64,000 nucleotides of DNA from positions 6,394-70,393 of the forward strand of contig CALXKN010000004.1 in assembly GCA_944388995.1 (NCBI GenBank), written 5' to 3'. The stretch comes from an uncultured Spirochaetota bacterium. GTDB lineage: Bacteria > Spirochaetota > Spirochaetia > JAFGXN01. Under the pieces are notes generated by a model. That model did not search any database. It had not been told where the DNA came from and saw only the letters and a list, made by a program, of their open reading frames with translations. Shown here one piece after another: positions 12,830 to 29,227 of the stretch; position 1 is the first letter of the stretch; each line of letters begins with the position of its first letter. The position numbers and the translations under genes were made by a program.

Positions 12830-12858
12830 TTGACAACAGCGGAAAGTGCATGTATAAT
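12830..12858 (+). promoter_or_regulatory. sigma70-like promoter (TTGACA-17-TATAAT) for sialidase gene
   Basis: TTGACA at 12830-12835, 17-nt spacer, TATAAT at 12853-12858; AGGAG RBS at 12877-12881. Confidence 0.5.
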
Positions 12859-12888
12859 AGCAACAGAATTCATCACAGGAGTTTCTTT

Positions 12889-14538
12889 GTGAAAAAATTG
12901 ATTTTTTGTTTGGTAATAGCGCCGATGCTGATGTGTTCGGTTCCGTTTATAACGAAGTTTGAAATGGCTTACGCCGGAGACGCCTCCGGATCGGGATATT
13001 TCCGCATTCCCGCATTGCTGACGCTGCGCAGTCCGGACGGCTCCCTGACCGATACCGTTGTGGCTGTTCAGGACGTCCGTTTCTCCGGGTTGGGGGATTC
13101 TCCCGCCAATATCGATTCGGGAATTCGTATCTCGCACGACGCCGGAAAAACCTTTGACGGGCACCGTCTTCTGCCGCCGTACACCTTCCGCGACGTAGCG
13201 GACGGAGAAAAGCATAAAACCGATTCGGCTTCCTTTATCGACTGTTCCCTGTTTCAGAATTACGGAACGGGCCGGCTTTTCGTCGCGGTCAATATGTTCC
13301 CATGGGGGGGCGGCATCATGGGCGGAAACGTCGTAGAGGGTACGCCGTTTGTCGAAAAAGACGGCGAAACCGTGATGCTGCTGACGGCAACGAAGGCGGC
13401 GGTTGATTTGATTGAAAGCGGAGAAGCGCCGGATCCCGAAAAAATTTGGGAAAAAGCGGCGCGTCTGTCCGATGTCAAACGTCCCGGAACCTATTATGTG
13501 AAAAAAGTTTCCGAATATCCCGTTTATCAAACCGATGCTTCGGGAGGGATTTTGTCCGACGAAAACGGATATGCGCGGCTGAAAGAGCCGTTTAAGCGGG
13601 AAATTTACGATGAAAACGGCAGTTACACGAATTTCTTTCTGAACGAACGGTATGAAGTCTGCTATGACGACGGCAGCGATCGGGGGATTGTCCTGAAGGT
13701 TCAGCAAATCGGCGGCGGGGAAACCGTTCCGATGAACGTCGCGTTTAAATATTCGATTTTTCAAATGTTCCGCACGTCGTATAACTTTTTGATTTACAGC
13801 GACGATAAAGGGCAGACGTGGTCGGACCCGATCAATTTGACCGGTATGATTCAAAAACCGACGGAAAACGTCACATACCAAATCGCATCGCCGGGAACCG
13901 GTCTTTATGTTGACCGCGGTCCTTACAAAGGAAGGGTGATGTTTGCCTGCTATACGAATACATCTCCCGACGGAGCGGTGAAGGCGGAAGTGCCGGTTGC
14001 GGTTTGGTCGGATGATAACGGCAAGACGTGGACGCGCGGCGAGACGCTGACTGATTTGGGCGATACCGTCAAGATGTCGGAATCGGTTCTGACGGTGATG
14101 CCGGACGGCAATATCCGCATTTTTTCGCGGACGGGATCGAGCCGGGTCGGTACGGCGCTCTCCCTTGACGGCGGAAAAACGTGGCAGACGGCGCAAAAAA
14201 TTGAAAAAATTTACAATGCCGCAAGTTCCGGCTGTCAGATTACGGTTTTCAATTATCCGGTCAAGGTTGACGGCTGTGACGCGCTGGTTTTGGCCTCTCC
14301 GCAATCAGTTAAGGCGAGGGAAAAAGGGACATTGTGGATCGGTTTGATTCGCGACGGCTCGGGGAATGAAATCGACTGGACGCCGACGACGATTCACGAC
14401 GGCGCTTACGCCTACTCTTGCGCAACTCCGCTGGCCATTTATTCCGAAAGAGGATTCCCCGCGGTCGGTCTCTACGCCGAGTTGGAAGGCAACAAAATGC
14501 ATTACGGGATTCTTTCGTTTGATGATTTGCGCCGCTGA
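12889..14538 (+). CDS. exo-alpha-sialidase (neuraminidase), secreted
   Basis: YFRIPAL (FRIP motif), Asp-boxes SDDKGQTW, SDDNGKTW, SLDGGKTW; signal peptide after GTG 12889. ORF-track start 12850 lies inside the -10 box. Confidence 0.8.
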   Translation: MKKLIFCLVIAPMLMCSVPFITKFEMAYAGDASGSGYFRIPALLTLRSPDGSLTDTVVAVQDVRFSGLGDSPANIDSGIRISHDAGKTFDGHRLLPPYTFRDVADGEKHKTDSASFIDCSLFQNYGTGRLFVAVNMFPWGGGIMGGNVVEGTPFVEKDGETVMLLTATKAAVDLIESGEAPDPEKIWEKAARLSDVKRPGTYYVKKVSEYPVYQTDASGGILSDENGYARLKEPFKREIYDENGSYTNFFLNERYEVCYDDGSDRGIVLKVQQIGGGETVPMNVAFKYSIFQMFRTSYNFLIYSDDKGQTWSDPINLTGMIQKPTENVTYQIASPGTGLYVDRGPYKGRVMFACYTNTSPDGAVKAEVPVAVWSDDNGKTWTRGETLTDLGDTVKMSESVLTVMPDGNIRIFSRTGSSRVGTALSLDGGKTWQTAQKIEKIYNAASSGCQITVFNYPVKVDGCDALVLASPQSVKAREKGTLWIGLIRDGSGNEIDWTPTTIHDGAYAYSCATPLAIYSERGFPAVGLYAELEGNKMHYGILSFDDLRR

Positions 14539-14564
14539 CAGGAAGTTTCGGAGCGAAATTTGAA

Positions 14565-14618
14565 GGGAAGAAGCGTCCGCTTGCGGCGCTTCTTCCCTTT
14601 CTTTTTCTTTTTCTTTCG
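14565..14618 (+). terminator. rho-independent terminator after sialidase
   Basis: 11-bp perfect stem gggaagaagcg/cgcttcttccc followed by a tttctttttctttttctttc T-tract. Confidence 0.65.
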
Positions 14619-15535: not shown

Positions 15536-15795
15536 GGATTTTCGTTCTCTCCGGCAGCCGGACTCAGCCGTTCCAGTTCCTGCGTTAAACGAAGATTTTC
15601 GGCTTTCAGCGCTTCGATTTCTTTTGTGAGCGTTTGCACGGAAGAGACGGCTTTTTTATCGTTGGTGAAGTTGTCGATGACCCCATAGCGTTCCAGGAAG
15701 AAGAACAGAAGTATGTAAGGGACGACAATCAGAAATGAGACAAGGATGCGTCTGACGGTAGCTCTGTAGTCTTTATCTCCCGACGGTTTTGTCAT
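15532..15795 (-). CDS. small membrane protein with C-terminal coiled coil (FtsB/DivIC-like topology)
   Basis: 87 aa; single TM (ILVSFLIVVPYILLFFFL) followed by a leucine-zipper-like KEIEALKAENLRLTQELERL. Confidence 0.35.
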   Translation of the reverse strand: MTKPSGDKDYRATVRRILVSFLIVVPYILLFFFLERYGVIDNFTNDKKAVSSVQTLTKEIEALKAENLRLTQELERLSPAAGENENP

Positions 15796-15866
15796 GAAAG
15801 CCTCCTGTTTTGATATTAGCCTGTTTCTGGAAAAAAGTCAAATCCGAATTCATGGAAAATTCCTGC

Positions 15867-15895
15867 TTGATATTTGGGGAGGGGAGTGGTATAGT
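15867..15895 (+). promoter_or_regulatory. sigma70-like promoter (TTGATA-17-TATAGT)
   Basis: TTGATA 15867-15872, 17-nt spacer, TATAGT 15890-15895; about 30 nt upstream of ATG 15926 with AAGGAG RBS. Confidence 0.4.
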
Positions 15896-15925
15896 GAAAC
15901 TATATGGAATAAAAAGGAGTTCCCG

Positions 15926-17332
15926 ATGCAAAAACGACGTTTTTTTTTCTTTATATTTATCCTGTTTTCATTCCTGTGTTACGGGATTGATGCGGATTTT
16001 GATTTAACTCCGCTGACAGAAAACGGGGTTCTTGTCTATCCCACGCCTCCGAGGGCGTCCGGACAGAGCGATGTATTGGCTTTGCGTTGTGAGCCGATTG
16101 AAACCGTGCGTATTGCCGCCATCGGATTGGGAATGCGGGGATCTTCCATGACGCTGAGTTTTGCCCGTGTTCCGAACGCCGAAATTACCGTTATTTGCGA
16201 TAAAAATCCCGAAGCGGTTGAAAAGACGGTTCGGGCGTTAAAAGCCCTCGGTAAATCGGAACCTGTAACGTATACAGGCGAAGAAGATTGGAAAGAGATT
16301 TGCCGTCGCGGCGATGTTGATTTGATTTGCGTTTTTACGCCGTGGCCGCTGCACACTCCGATTGCTGTCGAGGCAATGAGAAACGGAAAGCACGTCGCAA
16401 TAGAAGTTCCGGCGGCATTGACATTGCGGGAGTGTTGGCAGTTGGTCGATACGGCTGAACAGACCCGCCGCCATTGTATTATGATGGAGAACTGCAATTA
16501 TGATTTTTTTGAAATGGCAATACTGAATATGGCGCAGCAGGGTGTTTTCGGAGAAATCGTTCACGTCGAAGGTGCGTATATCCACGATTTGCGCAGCATG
16601 CACTTTGCTTTGCCGGGGGAAGAGGGACATTATGAGGATATGTGGCGTCTTCAGGAGACTCGGAAACATACCGGGAATCTCTATCCGACGCACGGATTGG
16701 GACCTGTCGCTCATGTTTTGAATCTCCATCGTGGTGATAAAATCGATGTTCTGGTTTCGCTTTCCTCTGGACAATTCGGAATGAGTGCATTTGCCGAAAA
16801 TAAATTCGGTAAGGATTCCGAATTTGCGGGAGAGGATTATCGGTTGGGCGATATGAATACAACCGTTGCCAGAACCGTTAACGGAAAGACGGTTATGATT
16901 CAGCATGACGTGACTTCTCCCCGTCCGTACAGCCGTCTTCATACTGTCAGCGGAACAAAGGGATTTGCACAGAAATATCCGGTAGAGACCATTGCTTTGG
17001 ATCCAGATGCCCATCAGTCGGTTTCCAAGGCAAAATTAAAGGCACTTCTGAAAAAATACGAGCATCCGATTACCAGACAGTACGGACGGAAAGCAAAATC
17101 CGTCGGCGGGCATGGCGGAATGGATTATATTATGAACTGTCGAATCATTTACTGCCTGAATCACGGGCTGCCGATGGATCAGGATGTTTATGATGCGGCC
17201 GAATGGAGCGCTTTTTGTGAGTTGACGGAAGTTTCGGCCGAAAACAACGGAATTCCTGTTCGATTTCCCGATTTTACAAGAGGCGCATGGAACCGTTTGG
17301 ACGGTGTAAAATATTATATGGACGGAGAATGA
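15926..17332 (+). CDS. secreted Gfo/Idh/MocA-family NAD-dependent enzyme, GH109 (alpha-N-acetylgalactosaminidase)-like
   Basis: Signal peptide MQKRRFFFFIFILFSFLCYG, Rossmann motif IAAIGLGMRG, about 470 aa typical of GH109. ORF-track start 15794 is upstream of the RBS-supported ATG 15926. Confidence 0.55.
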   Translation: MQKRRFFFFIFILFSFLCYGIDADFDLTPLTENGVLVYPTPPRASGQSDVLALRCEPIETVRIAAIGLGMRGSSMTLSFARVPNAEITVICDKNPEAVEKTVRALKALGKSEPVTYTGEEDWKEICRRGDVDLICVFTPWPLHTPIAVEAMRNGKHVAIEVPAALTLRECWQLVDTAEQTRRHCIMMENCNYDFFEMAILNMAQQGVFGEIVHVEGAYIHDLRSMHFALPGEEGHYEDMWRLQETRKHTGNLYPTHGLGPVAHVLNLHRGDKIDVLVSLSSGQFGMSAFAENKFGKDSEFAGEDYRLGDMNTTVARTVNGKTVMIQHDVTSPRPYSRLHTVSGTKGFAQKYPVETIALDPDAHQSVSKAKLKALLKKYEHPITRQYGRKAKSVGGHGGMDYIMNCRIIYCLNHGLPMDQDVYDAAEWSAFCELTEVSAENNGIPVRFPDFTRGAWNRLDGVKYYMDGE

Positions 17333-18120
17333 AAATTAATTCAATGAAGAGTGCTTCGGAAGTGCGCACGGCTTGCCGCACAGGACGTTGGGACGGACCA
17401 ACCTGCGGATTGGCGCCCGGTTTTGTTCAGGCCAATTTGGCTGTTTTTCCGAAAGATTGGGCCTATGATTTTCTGCTTTTTGCGCAGCGCAATCCCCGTC
17501 CGGTGCCGGTTTTGGAAGTCGGTGAAACTGGTGATTTTCTTGTGAAAGAGCTTGCCGAAGACGCCGATATCAGAACCGATTTACCGAAATACATCGTTTG
17601 GGAGAACGGAAAGCCTGTCTGTGAAGTGCCCGATATCGTCGATTTTTGGAGAGAGGATCTCGTTTGGTTTCTGATTGGCTGCAGCTTCAGTTTTGAAGAG
17701 GAATTGATGAATGCAGGACTTCCTGTCCGTCATATTGAGGAAAAAGTCAACGTTCCGATGTACCGAAGTTCATTGATTTGCAGAGGCGCCGGAAAAATTC
17801 CTGATACGCCGATGGTTGTCAGTATGAGACCTTACACGCCGGAAGACGCCGAACGGGCTTCGGAAATCACCGGAAGGATGCCGTCTGTTCACGGAGCCCC
17901 CGTTCATAAGGGCTCTCCCGACGCTATCGGCATTAAAGACATTCAAAAACCGGATTTTGGGGATGCCGTTACGGTCTATCCCGGAGAAATTCCTGTTTTT
18001 TGGGCATGCGGAGTCACTCCGCAATCGGCAGTCATGGAAGCGAAGCCGCCGTTTATGATTTCACACGCCCCGGGGCATATGTTCATCGGAGATAAGCGGA
18101 ATGAAGAGTACCGCATTTGA
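17329..18120 (+). CDS. DUF1445/YcsI-family protein (putative hydro-lyase; D-glutamate cyclase-like C-terminal domain)
   Basis: RTACRTGRWDGPTCGLAPGFVQANLAVFPKDWAYDFLLFAQRNPRPVPVL matches the conserved DUF1445 N-terminus; lies beside pxpBAC as in the B. subtilis ycsF-ycsI-kipIA operon. Confidence 0.6.
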   Translation: MKINSMKSASEVRTACRTGRWDGPTCGLAPGFVQANLAVFPKDWAYDFLLFAQRNPRPVPVLEVGETGDFLVKELAEDADIRTDLPKYIVWENGKPVCEVPDIVDFWREDLVWFLIGCSFSFEEELMNAGLPVRHIEEKVNVPMYRSSLICRGAGKIPDTPMVVSMRPYTPEDAERASEITGRMPSVHGAPVHKGSPDAIGIKDIQKPDFGDAVTVYPGEIPVFWACGVTPQSAVMEAKPPFMISHAPGHMFIGDKRNEEYRI

Positions 18121-18955
18121 TAAAATTGAAAATTTGGTATTACAGGATCCCGGTAAAAGAGGGTTTCCGCGCTTTGCCGTTCCGGGAATGTACCGTCGGG
18201 CGGCGGAGTCTCTTTTTTTTGCGTCGTCAGTATGGATGGTTTCCGGATTTTGGATTCTTGGGGCAGGCGCCTTGGAAACCGACGGACCTCCGGGAACGGT
18301 GGTTTTGGCATCCGCTTTGAAACAATTAAAAATTCCGGTCAGAGTTTTTACCGATGCACACTCCGTCGGAATTTTTCACTCCGCTTCGGCCGCTCTCGGA
18401 TTGACTGATCTTCCGGTTGACGGTGCGGATCATTTCGCATTCCGTTCAGGAGAAATTGCGCCGTCGCATTTTATCGCGTTGGAGCGTCCCGGAAAAGCTG
18501 TTGACGGAGAGTGTTATAATTTCCGGGGAGAGTCGGTATCCCGGTTTACGGCCGATACCGATGCTCTTTTGAACCGGGTCAAATCGGAGGGGAGTGTTAT
18601 TGTTGCTGTCGGTGACGGCGGTAACGAGTTGGGAATGGGAAATTTCCGCAGGCAAACGGAAAGACTTTTTTCGGACGGACGGCCTTTTGCCGCTGTCGCC
18701 GTTTCCGATTTTCCTCTTTGTGCCGGAGTCAGTAATTGGGGAGGTTACGCTTTGGCAGCCATGCTTTCGTTGCTGAGCGGAAGGCCTTTGATGCCGACTG
18801 CTTCAACGCTTTCGGCGGTTCTGAAAGCGTGTGCGGCGGCCGGTTGCGTTGACGGCGTTACCGGGCGGAATGAAACTACGGTGGACGGACTGCCTCCCGG
18901 ATATGAGGAGGAAGTTTACGTGCAAATACGGAGGATTGCAGATGTTTCCGTTTGA
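18101..18955 (+). CDS. DUF4392-like protein (partner of DUF1445)
   Basis: Adjacent to and overlapping DUF1445; GDGGNELGMGN motif. The assignment rests mainly on recalled family co-occurrence. Confidence 0.4.
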   Translation: MKSTAFDKIENLVLQDPGKRGFPRFAVPGMYRRAAESLFFASSVWMVSGFWILGAGALETDGPPGTVVLASALKQLKIPVRVFTDAHSVGIFHSASAALGLTDLPVDGADHFAFRSGEIAPSHFIALERPGKAVDGECYNFRGESVSRFTADTDALLNRVKSEGSVIVAVGDGGNELGMGNFRRQTERLFSDGRPFAAVAVSDFPLCAGVSNWGGYALAAMLSLLSGRPLMPTASTLSAVLKACAAAGCVDGVTGRNETTVDGLPPGYEEEVYVQIRRIADVSV

Positions 18956-19592
18956 AAAAACGGCGGTGGGCGATTTCGCTGTTTCATGGAAATTGGCGGA
19001 AACGATTTCGGTTGAAACTTCTCGCCGGGTTTTGTGCTGTTATCAGGCTTTGAGAGAAAGTAAAAATCCTGTTTTGAAGCAAATCACAGATATCGTTCCG
19101 ACTTATTTATCCGTCACTGTTTATTTCAGAGAGGCCGGAAACGATGAAATTCAGAAGGCCGTTGCTTTGACGGATGAGTTTTTTTCCCGCTTGGATATGA
19201 ATTCTGCGGATAATGGAAAAGGTTCCGTCCTGACGGTTGAATTTCCGGTTGTTTATAACGGCGCGGATTTGGAGCGGGTTGCTGAAATCCACGGAATTTC
19301 CGTCGAAAGCGTCATTCGGCTTCACTGTTCGTCCGAATACCGCGTTGCCATGATCGGATTTAAACCGTATTTTCCGTATTTAATCGGATTGCCGGCTGAG
19401 TTGGAAACTCCGCGGTTGGATTCTCCGCGGCTGTCGGTTCCTGCCGGTTCCGTTGCCGTAGGCGGAGCGCAAACGGGAATTTATCCGGAGGTTTCGCCCG
19501 GCGGTTGGAATCTTCTCGGAGTAACTGATCCGGAATTGCTGAAACAGTTGCGCCCCGGCGATCGGGTTTTGTTTAAAGCTGTCAGTAAATAA
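18942..19592 (+). CDS. pxpB: 5-oxoprolinase subunit B (KipI / allophanate hydrolase subunit 1 family)
   Basis: GFKPYFPYLIGL...PRLSVPAGSVAVGGAQTGIYPEVSPGGWNLLG carboxyltransferase-domain signature; GGAGG RBS 7 nt upstream of ATG 18942. Confidence 0.7.
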   Translation: MFPFEKTAVGDFAVSWKLAETISVETSRRVLCCYQALRESKNPVLKQITDIVPTYLSVTVYFREAGNDEIQKAVALTDEFFSRLDMNSADNGKGSVLTVEFPVVYNGADLERVAEIHGISVESVIRLHCSSEYRVAMIGFKPYFPYLIGLPAELETPRLDSPRLSVPAGSVAVGGAQTGIYPEVSPGGWNLLGVTDPELLKQLRPGDRVLFKAVSK

Positions 19593-19604
19593 AAAGGAGA
19601 AAAA

Positions 19605-20324
19605 ATGGTTGTCAACTGCGATATCGGGGAGAGAGGAGTCAATCATCCGACAGATTTAAAGTTAATGACTCTTATTTCAACCGCCAATATTGCCTGCGGC
19701 GGGCACGCCGGAGATCGGGAAAGCGTCGACGCTTTTTGCGCATTGGCAGATAAGAATAACGTAACCGTTTCAGCGCATCTGTCCTATCCCGATAAAGAAA
19801 ATTTCGGGCGGATTTCCATGAAAATCGATCCGGAACGATTAGCGGATTCTCTTTCCGAACAATATGAATTGATGCCTCCGGCAGTAAAACGTATCAAATT
19901 TCACGGAGCGCTTTACAATGATGCTGTCGCCGAAGGCCGGCTTGCTTCTTTTTTGACAGAATGGATGAAACGGAATGCCGTCAATGAAGTCATTGCACCG
20001 AATGATTCTGCGTTGGCGGCGGCGGCACGGAACGCCGGAATTAAGGTTGAGGCGGAGGGCTTTGCCGAACGACGGTATATTTGGGATCCTCGGACGCGGC
20101 AGCTGACTTTGATGCCGCGCCGTTATCCGGAGGCGTCAATAAAAAATTTAAAGGAAGCGGTTGAACAATCCGTGCGGATGGTGCGTTCCGGAGAAGTGAC
20201 GGCATTTGTTGAAACCGGCGGGGAGTGGATTGAGCGTCTCTGTCCGATTGTTGTCGAAACGGTCTGCATTCATTCCGATTCTGTGATTGCTGTGGATTTG
20301 GCGGAATTGTTACGGAAATGCTGA
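19605..20324 (+). CDS. pxpA: 5-oxoprolinase subunit A (LamB/YcsF family)
   Basis: MVVNCDIGE...ISTANIACGGHAGD typical LamB/YcsF N-terminus; AAGGAG RBS. Confidence 0.75.
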   Translation: MVVNCDIGERGVNHPTDLKLMTLISTANIACGGHAGDRESVDAFCALADKNNVTVSAHLSYPDKENFGRISMKIDPERLADSLSEQYELMPPAVKRIKFHGALYNDAVAEGRLASFLTEWMKRNAVNEVIAPNDSALAAAARNAGIKVEAEGFAERRYIWDPRTRQLTLMPRRYPEASIKNLKEAVEQSVRMVRSGEVTAFVETGGEWIERLCPIVVETVCIHSDSVIAVDLAELLRKC

Positions 20325-21148
20325 AAGAAGTCGCACCCGGATTTTCCAGAAAAGTCTCCTTACCTGTTTACGGTCTGCAGGATCGCGGTATTGCTCCCGG
20401 GGGAGCGGCTGACCGGTTTTCGTTAGAGTGCGCGCTCTCTGTTTTGGGCGCCGGCGGAGATTCGTGGGAGGCCTATGAGTCGGTTGTGCCGGGACGGTGG
20501 GAGTGGGATGAGGATTCTTTTGCGGTTATGACCGGCGCTCCGTGCAAAAATGCTCTTCTGTGTCTGCCTTCCGGCGGAGCGGAACCGGTTGCGGAAGGAG
20601 TTCCGTTTTTTGCTCCTGCCGGTTCGCGGTTGAACTGCGGTGAACGGATAAAAGGGTTTCGGATTTATTTGACATCGGTGAAAAAAACGGAAATTCCTGA
20701 TCCGATCCGCCGCCGCCTGCTTCCGGTTGAAGAACGGTATGCCTGGGCGGAATTCGGCTGTATCCGTGTTGTTCGGGGACCGGAAGCCGCATTACTGAAG
20801 GATCCGTCGGTTTTCTGCCGTTCTTATTGGAAAATTTCAGTAAAATCTGATCACAGCGGATTGAGATTGGAAGGAATTGTACCGGAAACGGATTCGCTAA
20901 ACATGATTTCCGATGCGGTTGCCGATGGAACCGTTCAGTTGACGCCGCAAGGTCCGATTGTGTTGTTGCACTCACGGCAGACAGTCGGCGGGTATCCGCG
21001 GATTTACAACGTGATTTCGGCCGATGTTGATTTGCTGGCGCAATACATGCCGGGACAAATCATTCATTTCAGGGAAATTGATATCGGTGAAGCACGGCGC
21101 ATTAATGAAGAAAAAAAACTGTCGGCAGTTGCTTTTGAGACAGAATAA
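20318..21148 (+). CDS. pxpC: 5-oxoprolinase subunit C (KipA / allophanate hydrolase subunit 2 family)
   Basis: RQTVGGYPRIYNVISADVDLLAQ signature of KipA-type proteins. Confidence 0.7.
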   Translation: MLKEVAPGFSRKVSLPVYGLQDRGIAPGGAADRFSLECALSVLGAGGDSWEAYESVVPGRWEWDEDSFAVMTGAPCKNALLCLPSGGAEPVAEGVPFFAPAGSRLNCGERIKGFRIYLTSVKKTEIPDPIRRRLLPVEERYAWAEFGCIRVVRGPEAALLKDPSVFCRSYWKISVKSDHSGLRLEGIVPETDSLNMISDAVADGTVQLTPQGPIVLLHSRQTVGGYPRIYNVISADVDLLAQYMPGQIIHFREIDIGEARRINEEKKLSAVAFETE

Positions 21149-21157
21149 GGAGTTTAT

Positions 21158-21991
21158 ATGGATATTTGGTATGCAGACGGGAAATTCGTTCCGGAAGACG
21201 AGGCTTTTGTTTCGGCAAGAGATCTGGCTGTTTTGCGCGGATTCGGGGTGTTTGATTTTTTGAGAACCTATCACCGGAAACCGTTTTATTTGGAGGCGCA
21301 TATCGATCGCTTTTTCCGTTCGGCGGACGTGATCGGACTGAAAATTCCGATGAGCAAAAAAGAGACGGCCTCCGTGATCGAAGAGACGCTTTCGCGCAAT
21401 CCTCATCTTGAGGAGGCTAATATCCGGTTTGTCTTTACCGGCGGAAGCAGTCCCGACAATACTTTGCCGGCTGATAATGCCGGAAAATTTTACGTCATGG
21501 TCAGCCGTAAACAGGAGTGTCCTGCGTCGTGGTACAGCGACGGAGTGAAAACGATAACTGTTGATCAAAAACGCGCCTTTCCAGAGGCCAAGAGTATTGA
21601 TTACATTGCCGCAATTCAGGCGCAGCGCCAGGCAAAGAGTGTCGGCGCCGTTGAAGCGTTGTATACAGATGAAAAAAAGCGGGTTTTAGAAGCAACCACT
21701 TGTAATTTTTTTATTGTTAAAAACGGGAAATTGGTGACTCCCGGAGACGGAATCCTCCGCGGAATTACCAGAATGGCGTTACTGGAACTTTTAGACGGAA
21801 AGATTGATGTTGAAATCCGGGATATCAGTTTAAATGAGGCGCTTGATGCGGATGAAGCATTTATTACGGCTTCCAATAAGGAAATTGTTCCGGTTGTCAG
21901 AATCAATGACAGTGTTATCGGAGACGGAAAAGTCGGTAAAACTGTTAAACAGGTAACGGCTTGGTTCCGGGAAATGACGGACAGGTATTGA
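21158..21991 (+). CDS. class IV aminotransferase (D-amino-acid or branched-chain aminotransferase)
   Basis: FVSARDLAVLRGFGVFDFLRTY fold-type IV PLP aminotransferase N-terminus; about 277 aa; immediately upstream of alr. Confidence 0.7.
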   Translation: MDIWYADGKFVPEDEAFVSARDLAVLRGFGVFDFLRTYHRKPFYLEAHIDRFFRSADVIGLKIPMSKKETASVIEETLSRNPHLEEANIRFVFTGGSSPDNTLPADNAGKFYVMVSRKQECPASWYSDGVKTITVDQKRAFPEAKSIDYIAAIQAQRQAKSVGAVEALYTDEKKRVLEATTCNFFIVKNGKLVTPGDGILRGITRMALLELLDGKIDVEIRDISLNEALDADEAFITASNKEIVPVVRINDSVIGDGKVGKTVKQVTAWFREMTDRY

Positions 21992-21995
21992 TTTC

Positions 21996-23141
21996 ATGGA
22001 TTCCCGATTTTTCCCTCGCGCGGAAATCGATTTAAAGGCGCTTGCCGGCAATTACCGTCGGTTGAAAGCGTTGATGGCGCCGACGGCGCGGATGGCGGCG
22101 GTAATCAAAGCGGACGCATACGGTCACGGAGCCGTCAGGACGGCCCGGACGGCGTTAAACGAAGGCGCTTCCTTTTTGGTTGTTGCCCGGCCGGAAGAAG
22201 CGTTTGAACTGAGGGCGGCGGGCATCGGCGCGCCGGTTCTGCTTTTGGGTGCGCTGCCGCCGGAAAACGTGCGGGAAGCCGCCGAGGCCGGAATCACGTT
22301 GTCGGTCAACGGATTTGATGATGCGCATGAATTGAGCAGCCGGCTCGGCGGCGCTTCGGTGAAGGTTCACCTCAAAGTCGATACGGGCATGGGGCGGCTT
22401 GGGTTTTCTTTTAACGAATTCAGTGCTGATATTTCCGATGCGCTGCGAACGGTTCGTTCGGTTGCCTCGTTGCCGGGAGTGGAACTCGAAGGACTCTACA
22501 CTCACTTTGCTTCTGCTGATGCCGCCGAAGAAGAGACCGCTTTTTGCCTTACCCAATTTGACAGTTTTTCGCGGCTGATTCGGATTTTAGAAAAAGAGAA
22601 TCTGCGCCCGCCGATTTGTCACTGCGCCAACAGTGCGGCGACGCTGCGATTTCCTCAAATGCACCTCGATATGTGCCGCGTTGGCATTGTACAATACGGT
22701 TTGCGTCCGTCGGAATTTGTCGATGTCGCCGCACTCGGTTTCCGTCCTGTCATGACACTGCGTTCGCGAATCATTTATCTCAAAGAGGTTCCAGCCGGAT
22801 TTCCCGTCAGTTACGGTTCGGTGTGGAAAAGCCGGCGTCCGTCGCGGATTGCGACCGTAGCCGTCGGTTACGGTGACGGTTACCGCCGCTGTCTCTCCAA
22901 CTGCGGGGAGATGCTGCTGCGCGGCAAACGGGTGCCGGTTGTCGGACGGGTGTGCATGGATCTGACGATGATTGACGTCACCTCCGTTCCCGAAGCGGCC
23001 GTCGGGGACGAGGTGACCGTTTGGGGTGTTGAGGGAAGCGAAACGCTGTCGGCCGACGAAGTTGCGGCGGCGGCCGGCACCATCGGCTACGAAATGACAA
23101 CCGGATTAAACGTCCGCGTGCCGCGGATTTTCAAGGAGTGA
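21996..23141 (+). CDS. alr: alanine racemase
   Basis: AVIKADAYGHG (PLP-lysine motif) and overall Alr length. Confidence 0.85.
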   Translation: MDSRFFPRAEIDLKALAGNYRRLKALMAPTARMAAVIKADAYGHGAVRTARTALNEGASFLVVARPEEAFELRAAGIGAPVLLLGALPPENVREAAEAGITLSVNGFDDAHELSSRLGGASVKVHLKVDTGMGRLGFSFNEFSADISDALRTVRSVASLPGVELEGLYTHFASADAAEEETAFCLTQFDSFSRLIRILEKENLRPPICHCANSAATLRFPQMHLDMCRVGIVQYGLRPSEFVDVAALGFRPVMTLRSRIIYLKEVPAGFPVSYGSVWKSRRPSRIATVAVGYGDGYRRCLSNCGEMLLRGKRVPVVGRVCMDLTMIDVTSVPEAAVGDEVTVWGVEGSETLSADEVAAAAGTIGYEMTTGLNVRVPRIFKE

Positions 23142-23143
23142 GT

Positions 23144-23620
23144 TTGAAACGCGTTCTGTTTGTCTGTCTCGGAAACATTTGCCGTTCGCCTCTGGCACAG
23201 GCGCTTTTCGAAAAGGAAATCGAAGAGCGGGGATTGAGCCCGGCGGTTGTGGCCGACAGTTGCGGTTGTTCCGGCTGGCACAGCGGCGATTTGCCGGATC
23301 CCCGGATGAGGACGGAAGCGGCGCGCCACGGAATCGATTTGACCCACCGTGCGCGGAAAATCACAAACCGCGACGGCAGTGAATTCGATTATATCTTTGC
23401 AATGGATGAAGAGATTTATGACCGCCTTTCCGATGAATTGGGTGAAAAATACTGGAACAAAATCCGACTGTTTCGGGAGTGGGATCAACCCGATGCCGAC
23501 GGCAGCCGGGACGTACCGGATCCGTATTACGGCGGCAGAGAGGGGTTTGCAGCGGTTTATGACATTTGCGAACGAAACTGCCGCCTGATTGCCGACCGGC
23601 TTTTCCCGTGTAACGATTGA
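23144..23620 (+). CDS. low-molecular-weight protein-tyrosine phosphatase
   Basis: VLFVCLGNICRSPLAQA (CX5R P-loop) and DPYY motif; TTG 23144 (RBS AAGGAG) preferred over GTG 23138. Confidence 0.8.
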   Translation: MKRVLFVCLGNICRSPLAQALFEKEIEERGLSPAVVADSCGCSGWHSGDLPDPRMRTEAARHGIDLTHRARKITNRDGSEFDYIFAMDEEIYDRLSDELGEKYWNKIRLFREWDQPDADGSRDVPDPYYGGREGFAAVYDICERNCRLIADRLFPCND

Positions 23621-24639
23621 TCCGGAAAGGTGTTTTAAAAGAAAGAGGAACGGTTGTGTCTGACGAAAAAAAATTCGAAAAAGAGTGTGCGGTTTTAAAC
23701 GAAATCAAATCCGAGACGGCGAAGGTCATTGTCGGACAGGAGACGGTGATCGACCGTCTTCTGACGGCGCTGATTTGCGGCGGTCACGTTTTGCTTGAAG
23801 GCGTTCCCGGATTGGCAAAGACGCTGACGGTTTCCGTTCTGTCGCAGGTCATCGACGCCGACTTCAAACGGATTCAGTTTACGCCGGATTTGCTTCCCTC
23901 CGATTTGTTGGGTACCCTGATATACAATCCTCAGAAGGGGGCGTTTACAACCAAGAAGGGACCGGTTTTTGCCAACATCGTTTTGGCGGATGAAATCAAC
24001 CGCGCTCCGGCGAAGGTCCAGTCGGCTCTGCTGGAGTGTATGCAGGAGCGGCAGGTAACGCTCGGCGACGAAACCTTCCCGCTGCCGAAACCGTTTTTTG
24101 TTCTGGCGACACAGAATCCCATCGATCAGGAGGGAACCTATGCGCTTCCGGAGGCGCAGGTCGACCGTTTTTTCATGAAGCTGAATGTCACTTATCCCCG
24201 GCGGGACGAAGAGCTTCGGATTTTGGAGTCGATGAGTCTCAGCGAAATGCCGGCGGTGCGCCGCGGCGCGGTTTCCTCTCAGACGCTGCTCTCGTTTCAA
24301 ACCCTGCTTGACGAAGTTTATCTTGACGGCAAGCTGAAAGGATACATCGTCGACTTGATCCGGGCGACGCGCGATCCCGCTTCCGTCGGATTGGGAAAAC
24401 TGAAACCGCTGATCGCCTTCGGCGCTTCTCCCCGCGCCGTCATTGCGCTGGCGAAAGCTTCCAAGGCGACTGCCGTCTTAAACGGAAGAAATTGGGTCAA
24501 ACCGGAGGACATCGCCGCCGTCGCGCCGGACATTTTACGGCATCGAGTGATTCTCGGTTACGAAGCAATGGCCGAAGGAAAGACTTCGGATGCCGTCATT
24601 GACGAACTTCAAAAGGCGTGTCCCATTCCCGCATGTTAA
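23617..24639 (+). CDS. MoxR-family AAA+ ATPase
   Basis: Walker A LLEGVPGLAKT, Walker B VLADEINRA, about 330 aa. Confidence 0.85.
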   Translation: MIRKGVLKERGTVVSDEKKFEKECAVLNEIKSETAKVIVGQETVIDRLLTALICGGHVLLEGVPGLAKTLTVSVLSQVIDADFKRIQFTPDLLPSDLLGTLIYNPQKGAFTTKKGPVFANIVLADEINRAPAKVQSALLECMQERQVTLGDETFPLPKPFFVLATQNPIDQEGTYALPEAQVDRFFMKLNVTYPRRDEELRILESMSLSEMPAVRRGAVSSQTLLSFQTLLDEVYLDGKLKGYIVDLIRATRDPASVGLGKLKPLIAFGASPRAVIALAKASKATAVLNGRNWVKPEDIAAVAPDILRHRVILGYEAMAEGKTSDAVIDELQKACPIPAC

Positions 24640-25520
24640 ACGCCGATTTAAGAAAAAAAATTGAATATATTAAAATCATGACTCGCAAAAAGACCTCCGG
24701 CTCTTTTTCCGGAGGTTATTTGAGCGCTTTTCGCGGCCGCGGCATCGAATTCGAAGAGGTGCGCGAATACGCCGCAGGCGACGATTACCGCGCCATCGAT
24801 TGGAACGTGACCGCCAAAACCGGCAGGCCGCACATCAAGCGTTTTGCCGAAGAACGGGAGCTGACGCTTTTTTTTGCGGTCGACGTCTCCGCTTCGGCTG
24901 ATTTCGGCACGGGCGGAAAAACCAAAAAGGAAACAGCCGCCGAAATGGTCTGCGCTCTGGCGTTTGCCGCCGGACTGAACCGCGACCGCACCGGTCTTTT
25001 GCTTTTCAGCGACCGCAGCGAGCTGCGCGTGGCGCCGTCGAAAGGCGAGTGGCACTATTTGCGGCTGACAAGGGATCTGCTGGCGTTTGAGTGCCGGGAG
25101 AAGAAAACCTCGATTTCGGCCGCCTTAACCGATTTGGATGAAATCACCTCCAAACGGGCGGTGGTTTTTCTCTTTTCCGATTTTATTGATTCGGGATGGG
25201 AGAGGGCGCTGAAACAGACTGCAGTCAGACACGATTTGATTCCCGTCGTACTGAGGGATCCGGCGGAGTTGCGGCTGCCTTCCTGCGGACTGATGGAATT
25301 TGCCGACGGTGAGAGCGGCCAGACGGTGTTTGTTGACACGGCCTCGCCTGCCGTGCGCCGCCGCTACGAAGAAACCGCCGCCCGCCGCGACCGGGAACTG
25401 ATGAAGAAACTGAGGAAGTGCGGCGCCGATCCTCTGCTGATTGAGACCGACCGCGACTGGATTGATCCGTTGCGGCGGCTGTTTTTCGGAAGGGAACACC
25501 GCTTTCGGGAGGGTGTATGA
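24618..25520 (+). CDS. DUF58-domain protein (MoxR partner)
   Basis: GGYLSAFRGRGIEFEEVREYAAGDDYRAIDWNVTAK DUF58 signature. Start ambiguous (GTG 24618, ATG 24633 or ATG 24675). Confidence 0.7.
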   Translation: MSHSRMLNADLRKKIEYIKIMTRKKTSGSFSGGYLSAFRGRGIEFEEVREYAAGDDYRAIDWNVTAKTGRPHIKRFAEERELTLFFAVDVSASADFGTGGKTKKETAAEMVCALAFAAGLNRDRTGLLLFSDRSELRVAPSKGEWHYLRLTRDLLAFECREKKTSISAALTDLDEITSKRAVVFLFSDFIDSGWERALKQTAVRHDLIPVVLRDPAELRLPSCGLMEFADGESGQTVFVDTASPAVRRRYEETAARRDRELMKKLRKCGADPLLIETDRDWIDPLRRLFFGREHRFREGV

Positions 25521-26395
25521 AAATCGCAGTACGTTTGACAGCCTTTTTGCTGTTTGGTTTTCTTTCCTGCGCGCGCGGGGAACCGCTGCCGGATCTGCTT
25601 AAAACGTATCAGGTTCCGACGGGAACCTTCAGCGTTTCGGTTGACCGTTCTTCCGTTAATCCGGCGGAACGGCTGACAGTGAGCGCCGAAACGCGCCGCG
25701 AAGACGGAAAGCTTCCCGCTCTGACATGGAGCGGAGATCTGCCGCTGAGGCTTCTTGAGACTTACGAAGCGCCGGCGGAGACCGTCTACCGCTTCGACTC
25801 TGATGTGCCCGGCCGTTATGTTTTGCCGCGGCTGAAAGTGGCGTTTCCGGATGAACGGGAATTTTTCACCGACGAAATTCCGCTTACCGTTTTCAGTGAA
25901 ACGGAAGGCGGCGGGCTTCCCGCGGAAATCCTTCCGATTCAGGATGACGAAACCGATCTGTTTTTGATTCTGCTGAGTGTCTGTGCGGCCGTTTTTATTC
26001 TTCTGTTTGCGGTTTTGATTGCGCTTCTGGTGCGTTACCGGATTCTCAAAAAACGTTTAAAGGAGGCGGTTGACCTTCAGCCGCTGAATATACTGACAGC
26101 CTTAAAAGAGGCGGCCGCCAACCGTTTCGATACGCTGAAAACCGATCAGGCCGCCGTTCTGATCCTGCGGGCGGTGATGCTTTCGGTGAGTGACGGGGAG
26201 AAAATCGACGGGGTGATGGAACAATTCCCCGTCGGAACGCTCCGGAAACTGCGGGAAAAAACGGAGAAGTATCAGAAAATTGCCTTTGCGCAGACTCCCG
26301 TCACCAAAACCGAACTGACGGAGGATCTGAATTTTTTCATCGCATTTCAAAAAGAATGGATCCGGCTGAAAAATGAAGAGGCCGCGAAGAAATGA
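25517..26395 (+). CDS. hypothetical membrane protein of Bat operon
   Basis: Signal peptide plus internal TM (LFLILLSVCAAVFILLFAVLIALLV); conserved position between DUF58 and BatA. Confidence 0.5.
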   Translation: MKIAVRLTAFLLFGFLSCARGEPLPDLLKTYQVPTGTFSVSVDRSSVNPAERLTVSAETRREDGKLPALTWSGDLPLRLLETYEAPAETVYRFDSDVPGRYVLPRLKVAFPDEREFFTDEIPLTVFSETEGGGLPAEILPIQDDETDLFLILLSVCAAVFILLFAVLIALLVRYRILKKRLKEAVDLQPLNILTALKEAAANRFDTLKTDQAAVLILRAVMLSVSDGEKIDGVMEQFPVGTLRKLREKTEKYQKIAFAQTPVTKTELTEDLNFFIAFQKEWIRLKNEEAAKK

Positions 26396-27420
26396 GTTTT
26401 GCGTTTCCGTATGCGTTTCTTCTGCTGATTCCGCTCTGTTGCTACCCTGTTTTTGCTTTTTTTTGCAGAAAGCGGCGTCCTGAAACGGTTTTTTCATCGG
26501 TTTCGTTTTTCGGGGAAAAGCCGCCGGCGACCTTCCGGACGAAAACGGCCTTTATTCCGAAGCTGCTGTTTGCCGCGGCGCTGCTCTCCGGCATTGCCGC
26601 GGCCGCCGGACCTCAGAAAGTCACTGAAGCGGTGGAACGGCCCAAAGAAGGCATTGCCGTCGAGTTGGTATTCGACCGATCTTCGAGCATGGAAACGGTT
26701 TTATTGGAGAGTCTGCCTCCGCAAAAGCGGCTTGCGGCTGCCAAAGACGCGTTAAAGGCCTTTGTTTTCGGCGATGAAAAAGAAGGTCTGCCGGGACGTC
26801 CGAACGACTTGATCGGACTGATAGTCTTTGCCCGCTACGCCGACACCGTTTATCCGCTGTCGGTTTCGCACGAGGCGTTGCGGCCGATTATCGATTCGGT
26901 GGAAACACCGCTCGGCAGTGAGACGGAGGACGGAACCAATATCGGTGATGCGTTGGCGTTGGCGGCGGCGAGACTGAAAGCTTTTGATGAAGATGCGGAT
27001 TTTAAAATCGACAGCCGCGTGGTGGTTCTTCTGACCGACGGCGAAAACAACGTCGGAGAAAAAACGCCGCTTGAGGCAGCCGAATTGGCAAAAGAGTGGG
27101 GAATCCGCGTTTACTGCATCTTTTTCGGCGGACGCGGTTACATCGATTATTACGGACAAAAGTTTCCCGTTTTCAGTCATCCGGCCGGATTTCCCGATTT
27201 GACGGCCATCGCCGAGATGACCGGCGGACAGGCGTTTCGCGCCGACAGTACGGGTGAATTGCTGGAAATTTACAAGGAAATCGACCGGTTGGAAAAGACG
27301 GCTTTTGAAGTTTCTTCCCTGACTCGGACGGAAGAACGGTACCGGCCGTTTTTAACGGCGGCGGTGGCGCTTTTTTTTGTTTCGGCGGTTTCGGCTCTGA
27401 CGGTGTACGGAAGGAATTGA
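26392..27420 (+). CDS. batA: vWA-domain aerotolerance protein BatA
   Basis: N-terminal TMs, vWA MIDAS-like VELVFDRSSSM, C-terminal TM. Confidence 0.7.
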   Translation: MSFAFPYAFLLLIPLCCYPVFAFFCRKRRPETVFSSVSFFGEKPPATFRTKTAFIPKLLFAAALLSGIAAAAGPQKVTEAVERPKEGIAVELVFDRSSSMETVLLESLPPQKRLAAAKDALKAFVFGDEKEGLPGRPNDLIGLIVFARYADTVYPLSVSHEALRPIIDSVETPLGSETEDGTNIGDALALAAARLKAFDEDADFKIDSRVVVLLTDGENNVGEKTPLEAAELAKEWGIRVYCIFFGGRGYIDYYGQKFPVFSHPAGFPDLTAIAEMTGGQAFRADSTGELLEIYKEIDRLEKTAFEVSSLTRTEERYRPFLTAAVALFFVSAVSALTVYGRN

Positions 27421-28427
27421 TGCAGGAGTTGGTTTTTCTTTATCCCGAAGCGTTTTTTCTTTTATGGTTTCTGCCGTTTTTGATTGCGGCGGCGGCCGTT
27501 TCAGTTAAAAAACGGCGCCGTATCGAAAAAATTTACACCCGCCGCCGTCCCCGTTCCCGAAGAGCCCGCTTTTTTTCCCGGGCGGCTGCGTTCTGCGCGG
27601 CGGCGGCTTTGCCGCTTTGTGTGACGGCGGCAGCCGGTCCGGCCTGGGGAAAAGAGCTTCAGGCGGTGCAGACGGAGGGACGGGATGTGGTTTTTCTTGT
27701 CGACGTCTCTCAAAGTATGCTGGCGCGGGATTTGAATCCCAACCGGTTGGTTCAGGCTCAGACGGCCATTAAAGATACGATCGATCTGCTTGAAGGCGAC
27801 AGGGCGGCTTTGGTTGCGTTTGCCGGCAGTACCGTCGTTATGGCTCCTCTGACGACCGATTATGCGTTTCTGCGGCGGGCGGCGGACGAACTTTCGGTCA
27901 GTACGGTTGATCGCGGCGGAACGATGACAGGCGATGCGCTTCGCAAAACCATGCAGTTCATCTTTCCCGATTCGGAAGCCTCTGATGGTTACCGAGACAT
28001 CATTTTGATTACCGACGGCGAAGATCAGGGCAGTTTTCCGGTTCAGGCGGCCGAAGCGGCCGGAAAAAAAGGCATTCGGTTGATTTGCATCGGACTGGGA
28101 GACGAGGCGACCGGCACCCGTATTCCGGTTACCGATCCTTCGGGAACGGAGCGCTTTCTGATGTATAAAGGAAAGGAAGTTTGGAGCCGTCTCGATTCGA
28201 CAACTTTGAGAAAAATGGCGGCGGCAACTCCCGGCGGAAAATATTTGAATATCTCACGAGGCAGTTTTGATCTGGCATCGATTTATACCGAATTGGTGAA
28301 AGGCGCCGATCAACGTCGTTATGATTCGGGAGATTTTGAAGATTACAAAAACGAATATCGAATTTTTCTATTGCCGGCTTTGATTTTAATGACAGCAGCG
28401 CTTTTTTTACGGAGGGCGGCGGCATGA
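27417..28427 (+). CDS. batB: vWA-domain aerotolerance protein BatB
   Basis: VVFLVDVSQSM MIDAS motif, flanking TMs. Confidence 0.7.
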   Translation: MMQELVFLYPEAFFLLWFLPFLIAAAAVSVKKRRRIEKIYTRRRPRSRRARFFSRAAAFCAAAALPLCVTAAAGPAWGKELQAVQTEGRDVVFLVDVSQSMLARDLNPNRLVQAQTAIKDTIDLLEGDRAALVAFAGSTVVMAPLTTDYAFLRRAADELSVSTVDRGGTMTGDALRKTMQFIFPDSEASDGYRDIILITDGEDQGSFPVQAAEAAGKKGIRLICIGLGDEATGTRIPVTDPSGTERFLMYKGKEVWSRLDSTTLRKMAAATPGGKYLNISRGSFDLASIYTELVKGADQRRYDSGDFEDYKNEYRIFLLPALILMTAALFLRRAAA

Positions 28428-29227
28428 AGCGGATTTTGTTTGCGGCAGTGTTTCCGATATTTTTTTCCGCCTGTACGTTTCGTTCGGCGGCGTCGCTGTA
28501 CAATGAGGGGAATGAGTTGTATCGGGAAGGTCGTTTTACGGAAGCCGCTGACCGTTACAAAGAAGCGATTGAAAAAGATCCATCGCCCGGGCTGGCAGCA
28601 CGAATTTATTTTAATGCGGGCAATGCGTCGGTAAAGGAAGCGCTCGCTTCTTCCGGTGAATCGGCAGATCTTTCCTCTGCTGACAGCGAAAATCGCCTTC
28701 GTCAAGCTCTGGAACTTTATTGTCTGGCGCAGGCGTGTTGCAGCGAATCGTTTGCAGCAGCGGCTGTCAATGCGGAGTGGGTCAGAGTTCGTTTGTCCGG
28801 CAGCGAACAAAACTCCGAAGAACAAAACTCCGATAAAAATGAAGGAAGTTCATCCGATGAATCGGATTCTGCTGAAAACAAAGAAAACTCCTCCGGAGAA
28901 TCGGAAGAAGAAAGCAGCGAAGATTCATCTGAAAAACAGGATCCGCAAGAGAACAAAAGTGAAAATTCCGACCGGACGAATTCCGGAAAAGAAGAGGACA
29001 GCATTTCCGAAGAAGAAAATCCCGGCGAAGGTCAAGGCGCTGCTTCCGAAGAAGGAGAAAAAGACGCTTTCGGGCAGCCGAAATCCGAAGAAGACGCCCT
29101 TTCTCAGGAAGAGGCGGCACGGATGCGGGAAGCGGCAGAGTTGTTGGAACGGGAAGCGGCTATGCGCCGGCAACGCCCGCTATTTAATCGGGTGCCTTCC
29201 TATGATGATACGGAGAGGAATTGGTGA
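28424..29227 (+). CDS. batC: TPR/acidic low-complexity aerotolerance protein BatC
   Basis: Lipoprotein signal, TPR-like N-terminus, long Ser/Glu/Asp-rich tract. Confidence 0.6.
   Translation: MKRILFAAVFPIFFSACTFRSAASLYNEGNELYREGRFTEAADRYKEAIEKDPSPGLAARIYFNAGNASVKEALASSGESADLSSADSENRLRQALELYCLAQACCSESFAAAAVNAEWVRVRLSGSEQNSEEQNSDKNEGSSSDESDSAENKENSSGESEEESSEDSSEKQDPQENKSENSDRTNSGKEEDSISEEENPGEGQGAASEEGEKDAFGQPKSEEDALSQEEAARMREAAELLEREAAMRRQRPLFNRVPSYDDTERNW
28800..29110 (+). repeat. acidic low-complexity (GAA/GAT-rich) coding tract within batC
   Basis: Runs of gaagaa/gatgaa encoding SEEQNSD..ESEEESSEDSSE. Generates the spurious K-rich ORF 28656..29423 in another frame. Confidence 0.6.

Follow-up and report, generated by a model that had tools for sequence, protein, structure and literature searches.

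Gene content and organization

Seven closely packed genes at positions 17329-23141 (+) of a 64,000-nucleotide stretch of contig CALXKN010000004.1, from an uncultured Spirochaetota bacterium (assembly GCA_944388995.1), encode a putative split D-glutamate cyclase, a 5-oxoprolinase (Pxp)-like complex, a class IV aminotransferase and an alanine racemase. This whole stretch is called the window below. A first-pass annotation had proposed that the seven genes form a module interconverting D-glutamate (D-Glu), 5-oxoproline, L-glutamate and D-alanine, and domain searches bore out every family assignment and coordinate, as follows.

17329-18120 (+): DUF1445 / UPF0317 / YcsI-type protein ("D-Glu_cyclase"), 263 aa; PF07286, E 2.5e-64
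18101-18955 (+): DUF4392 / TON_0340-like two-metal (Mn2+/Mg2+) protein ("GLUCM-like_C"), 284 aa; PF14336, E 7.3e-72
18942-19592 (+): PxpB-like subunit (carboxyltransferase subdomains C/D), 216 aa; PF02682, E 2.6e-53
19605-20324 (+): PxpA-like subunit (LamB/YcsF lactamase family), 239 aa; PF03746, E 3.9e-53
20318-21148 (+): short-type PxpC-like subunit (carboxyltransferase subdomains A/B), 276 aa; PF02626, E 2.2e-33
21158-21991 (+): class IV aminotransferase (fold-type IV), 277 aa; PF01063, E 8e-51
21996-23141 (+): alanine racemase Alr, 381 aa; PF01168, E 7e-66, and PF00842, E 1.4e-48

The spacings along the seven genes are, in order, -20, -14, +12, -7, +9 and +4 nucleotides (nt). The open reading frames (ORFs) of DUF1445 and DUF4392 lie in different frames and overlap by 20 nt; the PxpB-like ORF, whose start reads as the in-frame ATG at 18942, overlaps the DUF4392 gene by 14 nt. 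The DUF1445 start codon (ATG at 17329) is preceded by GGAG and forms an ATGA overlap with the stop codon of the gene upstream, which is GH109-like.

DUF1445 and DUF4392 proteins

The DUF4392 assignment of 18101-18955, on which the earlier proposal hinged, was confirmed by the PF14336 match. The family profile also matches the structures 4FC5 and 4DWZ of TON_0340 (E 1.5e-58), and window residues E59, D61, E128, D172, E176 and D262 align with the TON_0340 metal ligands E59, D61, E115, D157, E161 and D246, so that, judged by alignment, all six acidic metal ligands are kept. In TON_0340 a small cavity holds two metal ions, either Mn2+ or Mg2+; the protein resembles the DHH core of RecJ and showed weak phosphatase activity only (PMC5132392). 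Outside the window protein's own 90% cluster, the nearest DUF4392 protein is 55% identical.

The DUF1445 protein scores above the cutoff of the NCBIfam model PRK05463, "putative hydro-lyase" (397.5 bits; cutoff, 324), matches PDB 3DB9 and 2PIF (E about 1e-89) and gave an AlphaFold2 model with a predicted confidence (pLDDT) of 92. Aligned relatives are 57-79% identical and share invariant C118 (in GCSFSFE), C227 (in WACGVTPQ), Glu123 and several His and Arg residues. Both Cys residues are also present in Atu3911 and PSPTO_5379, and each Cys motif stands at a strand-to-helix junction. A structure search with the model returned only the Atu3911 and PSPTO_5379 structures and a remote NrpR-like domain (3NEK), and found no racemase fold. 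An internal duplication was considered as well: hhalign of the two halves aligns both Cys motifs exactly, but the E value of 0.31 is not significant, and the duplication was rejected.

On family membership, the window proteins correspond to the two halves of mammalian D-glutamate cyclase (DGLUCY), DUF4392 to the C-terminal half and DUF1445 to the half of that name. The domain composition that the first-pass annotation gave for this enzyme agrees with the literature, human DGLUCY (C14orf159) consisting of DUF1445 and a C-terminal DUF4392 (TON_0340-like) domain (PMC5132392, PMC5339696). The mammalian enzyme (C14orf159 / 9030617O03Rik; EC 4.2.1.48), of which the mouse protein was assayed, converts D-Glu to 5-oxo-D-proline (PMC5339696).

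Conservation of gene order in other bacteria

A scan for DUF4392 in one genome per GTDB species gave at least 589 loci. In this and every other scan only the best 80 loci were examined, and co-occurrence with DUF4392 was counted within 10 kb. Among the best 80 of the at least 589 loci, DUF1445 is adjacent to or fused with DUF4392 in 33, at least one Pxp subunit is near it in 20, a class IV aminotransferase in 7 and alr in 2. More than half of the loci lack DUF1445, Pxp and a D-amino-acid transaminase (DAAT) within that distance. At least 13 loci carry a DUF1445-DUF4392 pair without Pxp.

Loci are designated here by L numbers. Three of them (L001-L003), with proteins 54-55% identical to those of the window, have the whole neighborhood in common with it and therefore show only common descent. 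Distant carriers, with DUF4392 about 36-42% identical to that of the window, have unrelated flanks. The full set of seven, arranged as in the window, occurs between unrelated flanks at L004/L005/L122, L010 (an Oceanispirochaeta metagenome-assembled genome [MAG]), L089 and L173, and six genes, alr being absent, at L006 (Oceanispirochaeta crateris), L090 and L011 (a Desulfolunaceae MAG). At L007, a Dehalococcoidales contig, DUF1445-DUF4392 faces a convergent pxpC-A-B, rearranged yet linked, and at L091 (a Desulfobacteraceae MAG) a Na+/alanine symporter and a PAS/HTH regulator precede DUF1445-DUF4392-PxpA-class IV aminotransferase. In clostridial loci the arrangement is DUF1445-DUF4392-PxpA-B-C, the Pxp proteins being more distantly related, and Anaerovibrio has class IV aminotransferase-PxpA-B-C-DUF1445-DUF4392. 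Frequent neighbors of the module are transporters (Na+/Ala symporter, major facilitator superfamily, tripartite ATP-independent periplasmic [TRAP] and polar amino acid ABC ATPase), chemoreceptors and dedicated regulators. The same order on contigs with unrelated flanks means that the gene linkage is not due to chance.

DUF4392 was also seen in other company. At L030 (9838-12189) and 11 other Rokuibacteriota/Methylomirabilota/Binatia loci it is followed by a class III aminotransferase akin to glutamate-1-semialdehyde aminomutase (PRK00062, 352 bits, below the cutoff), with neither DUF1445 nor Pxp, and DUF4392 may have a different role there. At three clostridial loci (L028, L032 and L041) it occurs with PxpA (LamB/YcsF) only, without PxpB, PxpC or DUF1445, and the pair adjoins a fused TRAP-type DctM permease and a DUF1850 protein.

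Gene replacement and fusion

Seven Phycisphaerae-type loci carry, next to DUF4392 and in place of Pxp, a fused HyuA/HyuB protein with the domains Hydant_A_N, Hydantoinase_A and Hydantoinase_B. These belong to the oxoprolinase/hydantoinase/caprolactamase family of ATP-dependent lactamases, and their substitution for Pxp is a non-homologous replacement. DUF4392 at the same loci is fused to part of MurD, the ligase that adds D-Glu: the N-terminal and central domains are present (TIGR01087 positions 1-300 of 441, 182-185 bits), and the D-Glu-binding C-terminal domain is absent (L029:9659-11779, L047:257-2464 and L049:9980-11764; also L018, L037, L040 and L043). DUF1445 often follows the fusion gene, and that of L049 is not in a dcw (division and cell wall) cluster. 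At L089, a full-length MurD-like ligase gene stands directly upstream of the seven genes. The fusions and this adjoining full murD back the connection to peptidoglycan D-amino acid supply or salvage that had been suggested from the window.

The transaminase of the module also varies. Clusters of Anaerovibrio, Lachnospiraceae and Sulfurospirillum carry a canonical Dat-type DAAT (F26/Y31/xYxQ), and modules of the window type carry the non-canonical type described below; these motifs indicate that two different DAAT lineages have been recruited. In addition, Clostridia have DUF4392-DUF1445 fusions (L024:9812-11638 and L042:9794-11632) in the order opposite to that of vertebrate DGLUCY (PMC5132392), and the fusion therefore arose at least twice. 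Replacement by HyuAB, fusion to MurD, two DAAT lineages and fusion in two orders connect DUF1445 and DUF4392 with D-Glu and 5-oxoproline without reliance on the window.

Pxp-like proteins

All three Pxp families (PF02682, PF03746 and PF02626) are encoded in the window by adjacent or overlapping genes. The best PDB match of the PxpC-like protein is Escherichia coli YbgK (5DUD), strong in the C-terminal half and weak in the N-terminal half. Relatives of this short PxpC are 270-300 aa long and were sampled in three contexts: the seven-gene module (L173); L172, where PxpB-A-C stands between TctCBA and DctPQM (TRAP) transporters without DUF1445 or DUF4392; and L174, where PxpB-A-C is alone, again without the pair. 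L172 and L174 rule out that short PxpBAC is exclusive to DUF1445/DUF4392, and its occurrence alone near transporters in L172 fits an autonomous enzyme.

Aminotransferase and alanine racemase

The aminotransferase scores below every NCBIfam cutoff. Its signature in all module orthologues comprises LRGFGVFDFLRTY (R27, F32, F34 and R36), NIRFV (R90), K145 and ASNKE (K241), and R27 and K241 align with R27 and K237 of AmicoTA, which bind the alpha- and gamma-carboxylates of D-Glu. The motif of non-canonical DAATs consists (in bsDAAT numbering) of R26, F31, [TY]33, [LA]35, x[RK]x[IVW] in the beta-Y strand and a basic residue in beta-turn 2; the window protein matches it at R27, F32, I-R90-F-V and K241 and deviates from it at F34 and R36. 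It does not have the canonical Bacillus Dat motif (F26, Y31, xYxQ and the R98-x-H100 trap), showing R27, F32 and NIRF instead and no RxH in the O-pocket loop.

The top PDB sequence matches are archaeal branched-chain amino acid aminotransferases (BCATs), with scores nearly equal to those of DAATs. FEGxR together with a Tyr before the beta-Y Arg is diagnostic of BCATs. Where the archaeal BCATs have FEGIR (Gly at the position of F34) and Y-I-R, the window has FDFLR and N-I-R, and the BCAT identity offered by the top PDB and NCBIfam matches was rejected on these motif residues, on the gene neighbors and on scores below all BCAT cutoffs. From its residues the protein is best read as a non-canonical DAAT, probably acting on D-Glu and D-Ala. 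The D-amino acid type named in the first-pass annotation is supported by R27 and K241 at the D-Glu positions of AmicoTA and by relatives found habitually with alr and near Ddl-like and PGA_cap genes.

These relatives came from metagenomes scanned with a profile built on the module aminotransferases, the best 80 being 45-53% identical. Alr is directly downstream in 20 of the 49 with at least 1.4 kb of downstream sequence, and PGA_cap (18 loci) and Ddl-like ATP-grasp (11 loci) genes are recurrent neighbors. PxpC is upstream in only 1 of the 50 with at least 1.2 kb of upstream sequence, and that one is the L004 contig, which rules out that the aminotransferase type is exclusive to the module; the aminotransferase-Alr pair is widespread without the rest. 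The window Alr scores 363 bits against TIGR00492 (cutoff, 168), passing as a generic alr product but not as DadX. As a separate observation, a 269-aa ORF with DSGLGGLS, ACNT and CTHF motifs lies recurrently near the DAAT-like gene in loci L092-L171; it is glutamate-racemase-like by eye and has no Pfam match at 1e-5.

Proposed pathway

The operon is a junction of three blocks that are also found alone, DUF1445-DUF4392, short PxpBAC and DAAT-Alr, and is not indivisible. We propose that it serves as a composite salvage and homeostasis operon linking 5-oxoproline, D-Glu, 2-oxoglutarate, D-Ala and L-Ala, and we give this reading a probability of about 0.5; the activities, stereospecificities and direction of flux are all predictions from sequence and gene context. 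We predict the following. (i) DUF1445 and DUF4392 would act together as a split cyclase that interconverts D-Glu and 5-oxo-D-proline without ATP, the chemistry relying on the two-metal (Mn2+/Mg2+) center in DUF4392 and on a pocket of DUF1445 that is rich in Cys and His. (ii) The short-type PxpB-PxpA-PxpC complex would convert 5-oxoproline, presumably the L-form as for characterized PxpABC, to glutamate at the expense of ATP. (iii) The transaminase would interconvert D-Glu plus pyruvate and 2-oxoglutarate plus D-Ala. (iv) Alanine racemase would interconvert D-Ala and L-Ala.

In the salvage direction, 5-oxoproline of either hand, together with D-Glu and D-Ala arising from wall turnover or spontaneous cyclization, would yield L-Glu, 2-oxoglutarate and L-Ala. 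In reverse, the pathway could keep a pool of D-Glu for MurD that would otherwise be lost as a dead-end lactam. The neighboring transporters, chemoreceptors and regulators favor salvage or catabolism and the MurD links favor wall synthesis, and both may hold.

Several observations weigh against this proposal. The Pxp-like proteins fall below their NCBIfam equivalog cutoffs, PxpB only just (TIGR00370, 144.3 bits; cutoff, 145.55), PxpA more clearly (best PxpA model, 178 bits; cutoff, 213) and PxpC by far (91 bits; cutoff, 500). Over half of the DUF4392 loci have neither DUF1445 nor Pxp nor a DAAT nearby, and some have other partners (a class III aminotransferase, for instance, or only PxpA); the family may thus serve several roles. 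The only biochemistry reported for DUF4392, a weak Mn-dependent phosphatase activity (PMC5132392), is not used by the proposed pathway. A cyclase and an ATP-dependent ring opener acting on the same enantiomer would form a futile cycle, and the model assumes that their stereospecificities are opposite or complementary. Finally, hydrolysis of 5-oxo-D-proline without ATP is thermodynamically unfavorable and would need to be pulled by the transaminase.

Alternative explanations

The genes could instead serve housekeeping supply of peptidoglycan precursors, with no uptake or catabolism: Alr would make D-Ala, the DAAT would make D-Glu from D-Ala and 2-oxoglutarate, the cyclase would only relieve an excess of D-Glu, as an overflow valve, and Pxp would perform ordinary repair of 5-oxo-L-proline. 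The Ddl-like and PGA_cap genes near related aminotransferase-Alr pairs, the murD that adjoins the module in L089 and the generic rather than DadX character of Alr are all consistent with such a role. The window also encodes a class A penicillin-binding protein and an M23 peptidase; its organism therefore makes peptidoglycan and needs both D-Ala and D-Glu. However, the transporters, chemoreceptors and regulators that so often neighbor the module are more typical of uptake and catabolism, and we consider housekeeping supply unlikely.

Rather improbable, in our view, is that the Pxp-like complex is itself a 5-oxo-D-prolinase to which DUF1445 and DUF4392 are accessory, DUF4392 for example hydrolyzing an intermediate of the gamma-glutamyl-phosphate type. 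Catabolism would then be linear, from 5-oxo-D-proline to D-Glu, to 2-oxoglutarate plus D-Ala and on to L-Ala. The overlapping frames, which suggest translational coupling and stoichiometric expression, would suit an accessory role, as would the divergence of the window Pxp proteins below the equivalog cutoffs and the fusion of Mur-ligase domains to DUF4392. Mur-ligase domains make acyl-phosphates. The DHH/RecJ-like two-metal site of DUF4392 and its weak phosphatase activity point the same way (PMC5132392). Each part is nevertheless found without the other: short PxpBAC stands without DUF1445 and DUF4392 in L172 (beside TctABC and TRAP genes) and L174, the at least 13 pairs noted above stand without Pxp, and mammalian DGLUCY works without Pxp (PMC5339696).

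A third scheme is an ATP-driven stereoinversion of glutamate, in which one member of the DUF1445/DUF4392 pair would cyclize Glu, the other would racemize 5-oxoproline and Pxp or HyuAB would open the inverted lactam irreversibly. The five core genes would thereby constitute a previously unrecognized, MurI-independent source of D-Glu from L-Glu for MurD, hard-wired in Phycisphaerae through the DUF4392::MurD fusion, or a sink from D-Glu to L-Glu. This scheme would explain both the co-occurrence of the pair with either of two non-homologous ATP-dependent lactamases and the fusion or adjacency to MurD where no DAAT is present. Cofactor-independent racemases carry a Cys pair at strand-to-helix junctions. 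The two invariant Cys residues of DUF1445 (GCSFSFE and ACGVTPQ) stand at such junctions in a racemase-like pattern, and DgcN offers a precedent for energy-costly, N-acyl-based racemization of D-Glu (PMC12363236). Yet the fold of DUF1445 is unlike that of Asp/Glu racemases, its sole remote structural neighbor being the NrpR-like domain, the internal-repeat signal is not significant, and where DAAT and Alr are present another means of making D-Glu would be superfluous. Mammalian DGLUCY, moreover, has both domains and is reported to yield 5-oxo-D-proline, the enantiomer that humans excrete (PMC5339696). We regard stereoinversion as quite improbable.

That the seven are unrelated housekeeping genes in one long operon, as the continuation of the packed run on both sides (GH109-like; LMW-PTP/MoxR/Bat) with neighbors common only to L001-L003 might suggest, is hardly credible and already contradicted by the comparative data, a seven-, six- or five-gene core recurring between different flanks in Spirochaetes, Desulfobacterota, Chloroflexota and Clostridia and surviving rearrangement, non-homologous replacement and gene fusion.

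Surrounding genes

The co-directional packed run exceeds the seven genes of the proposed salvage operon. Directly 5' of DUF1445 and overlapping it by 4 nt is a GH109-like NAD-dependent glycosidase gene (15794-17332). Farther upstream, a BNR/sialidase-like gene (12850-14538) has a promoter with perfect -35 and -10 elements (12830-12858) and a strong terminator (14562-14600). The link to the GH109-like and BNR genes is common only to the close relatives L001-L003. The 3' end of alr overlaps by 4 nt the gene for a low-molecular-weight phosphotyrosine phosphatase (LMW-PTP), and MoxR, DUF58, BatA/BatB-like VWA and BatD genes, an operon of the aerotolerance type, continue without gaps (23138-31709), so that the module is embedded in one very long co-directional run. 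A promoter and terminator scan found no strong internal terminator from 17.3 to 31 kb, and its strong sites lie only upstream of the module (promoter, 12830; terminator, 14562-14600). An Rfam scan of the whole 64-kb window at the gathering threshold found no riboswitch, rRNA, tRNA or other known RNA.

The window is otherwise ordinary bacterial chromosome, with def, fmt, relA/spoT, ispD, prfA, coaBC, panB, mfd and metH-like genes. Although the host is a bacterium, coenzyme A genes of archaeal type adjoin panB and coaBC: one encodes a phosphopantothenate synthetase (PF02006; 34862-35611, -), the other a GHMP kinase (35608-36510, -) that may be a pantoate kinase. At 37581-39176, the catalytic (OTCace) and regulatory (PyrI) domains of aspartate carbamoyltransferase are fused in one 531-aa ORF.

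Significance

UPF0317/YcsI (DUF1445) and TON_0340-like (DUF4392) proteins form large, highly conserved families, both with solved structures. In line with the first-pass annotation, our literature search found no functional study in bacteria and no bacterial or archaeal function for either family. The comparative data place the two at the D-glutamate/5-oxoproline node, beside peptidoglycan precursor synthesis, and name D-Glu, 5-oxo-D-proline and 5-oxo-L-proline as candidate substrates. Carriers with sequenced genomes include Oceanispirochaeta crateris (CP036150), Desulfoluna limicola and a member of the Phycisphaerales (CP070718), and the carrier groups (Clostridia, Spirochaetes, Desulfobacterota and Dehalococcoidia) suggest that the module belongs mostly to anaerobes. 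If the proposed pathway is correct, bacterial D-amino acid metabolism gains a means of turning over D-Glu and pyroglutamate, and the mammalian enzyme for D-Glu disposal, whose substrate is believed to derive in large part from bacteria, gains a microbial counterpart.

Comparison with known systems

The gene families of the module are all known, the linkage of DUF1445 to Pxp is already known from Bacillus subtilis (PMC10448178), and a count of split homologues of the human D-glutamate cyclase in gut bacteria already exists (PMC12547972). Our literature search did not find the module of seven genes, HyuAB in place of Pxp or the MurD fusions described, and a 2025 curated survey of D-amino acid genes makes no mention of the proposed route.

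DGLUCY resembles the window pair in having PF07286 followed by PF14336, the same order as the window genes, and in keeping the six acidic ligands of the DUF4392 half. It is one mitochondrial polypeptide, whereas the putative cyclase of the window is encoded by separate genes with a 20-nt overlap, which sit among genes for a predicted ATP-dependent oxoprolinase, a DAAT and Alr.

The linkage of YcsI and Kip proteins in B. subtilis, also cited in the first-pass annotation, is real: ycsI lies inside the ycsF-ycsG(mntG)-ycsI-kipI-kipA operon, which, like the window, unites DUF1445 with the three Pxp families (PMC10448178). The window differs in its B-A-C order, its short 276-aa PxpC and its sub-cutoff Pxp scores. 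It also has a DUF4392 partner, of which there is none among the operon genes named for B. subtilis (PMC10448178), and it lacks an NRAMP or KipR gene and has a DAAT and Alr appended.

TON_0340 of Thermococcus onnurineus (PDB 4FC5, 4DWZ and 5GL2-4) belongs to the same family as the window DUF4392 protein, all six metal residues being kept. It is archaeal, archaea are reported to lack DUF1445 homologues, and the only activity assigned to it is a weak, Mn-dependent phosphatase acting on AMP (PMC5132392). Unlike the TON_0340 gene, the window DUF4392 gene overlaps the DUF1445 and PxpB genes, an arrangement that suggests translational coupling.

Among transaminases, AmicoTA (8AHR) and Halhy (7P7X/7P8O) share with the window protein the fold-type IV, the catalytic Lys, Arg27 on the O-pocket helix, an Arg on the beta-Y strand and, where AmicoTA binds the gamma-carboxylate of D-Glu, a Lys in beta-turn 2. 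At positions 34 and 36 the window has Phe and Arg where the AmicoTA/Halhy/CpuTA-type motif has [TY] and [LA], and the published motif is thus present only in part. The Y31/R98/H100 trap of canonical Dat is absent, and the pairing with alr is as in the Bacillus Dat/Alr route to D-Glu.

Two other systems, MurI-independent or energy-consuming, handle D-Glu stereochemistry at an energy cost. MurD2/MurL of Xanthomonas sets D-Glu stereochemistry in connection with a MurD-type ligase and has no homologous proteins in the module. DgcN/DgcA, likewise without homologues in the module, is tied to D-Glu catabolism (PMC12363236). MurD2/MurL works through a UDP-MurNAc-peptide and DgcN/DgcA through N-acetyl-Glu, whereas the chemistry proposed for the module would run through the free lactam, 5-oxoproline.

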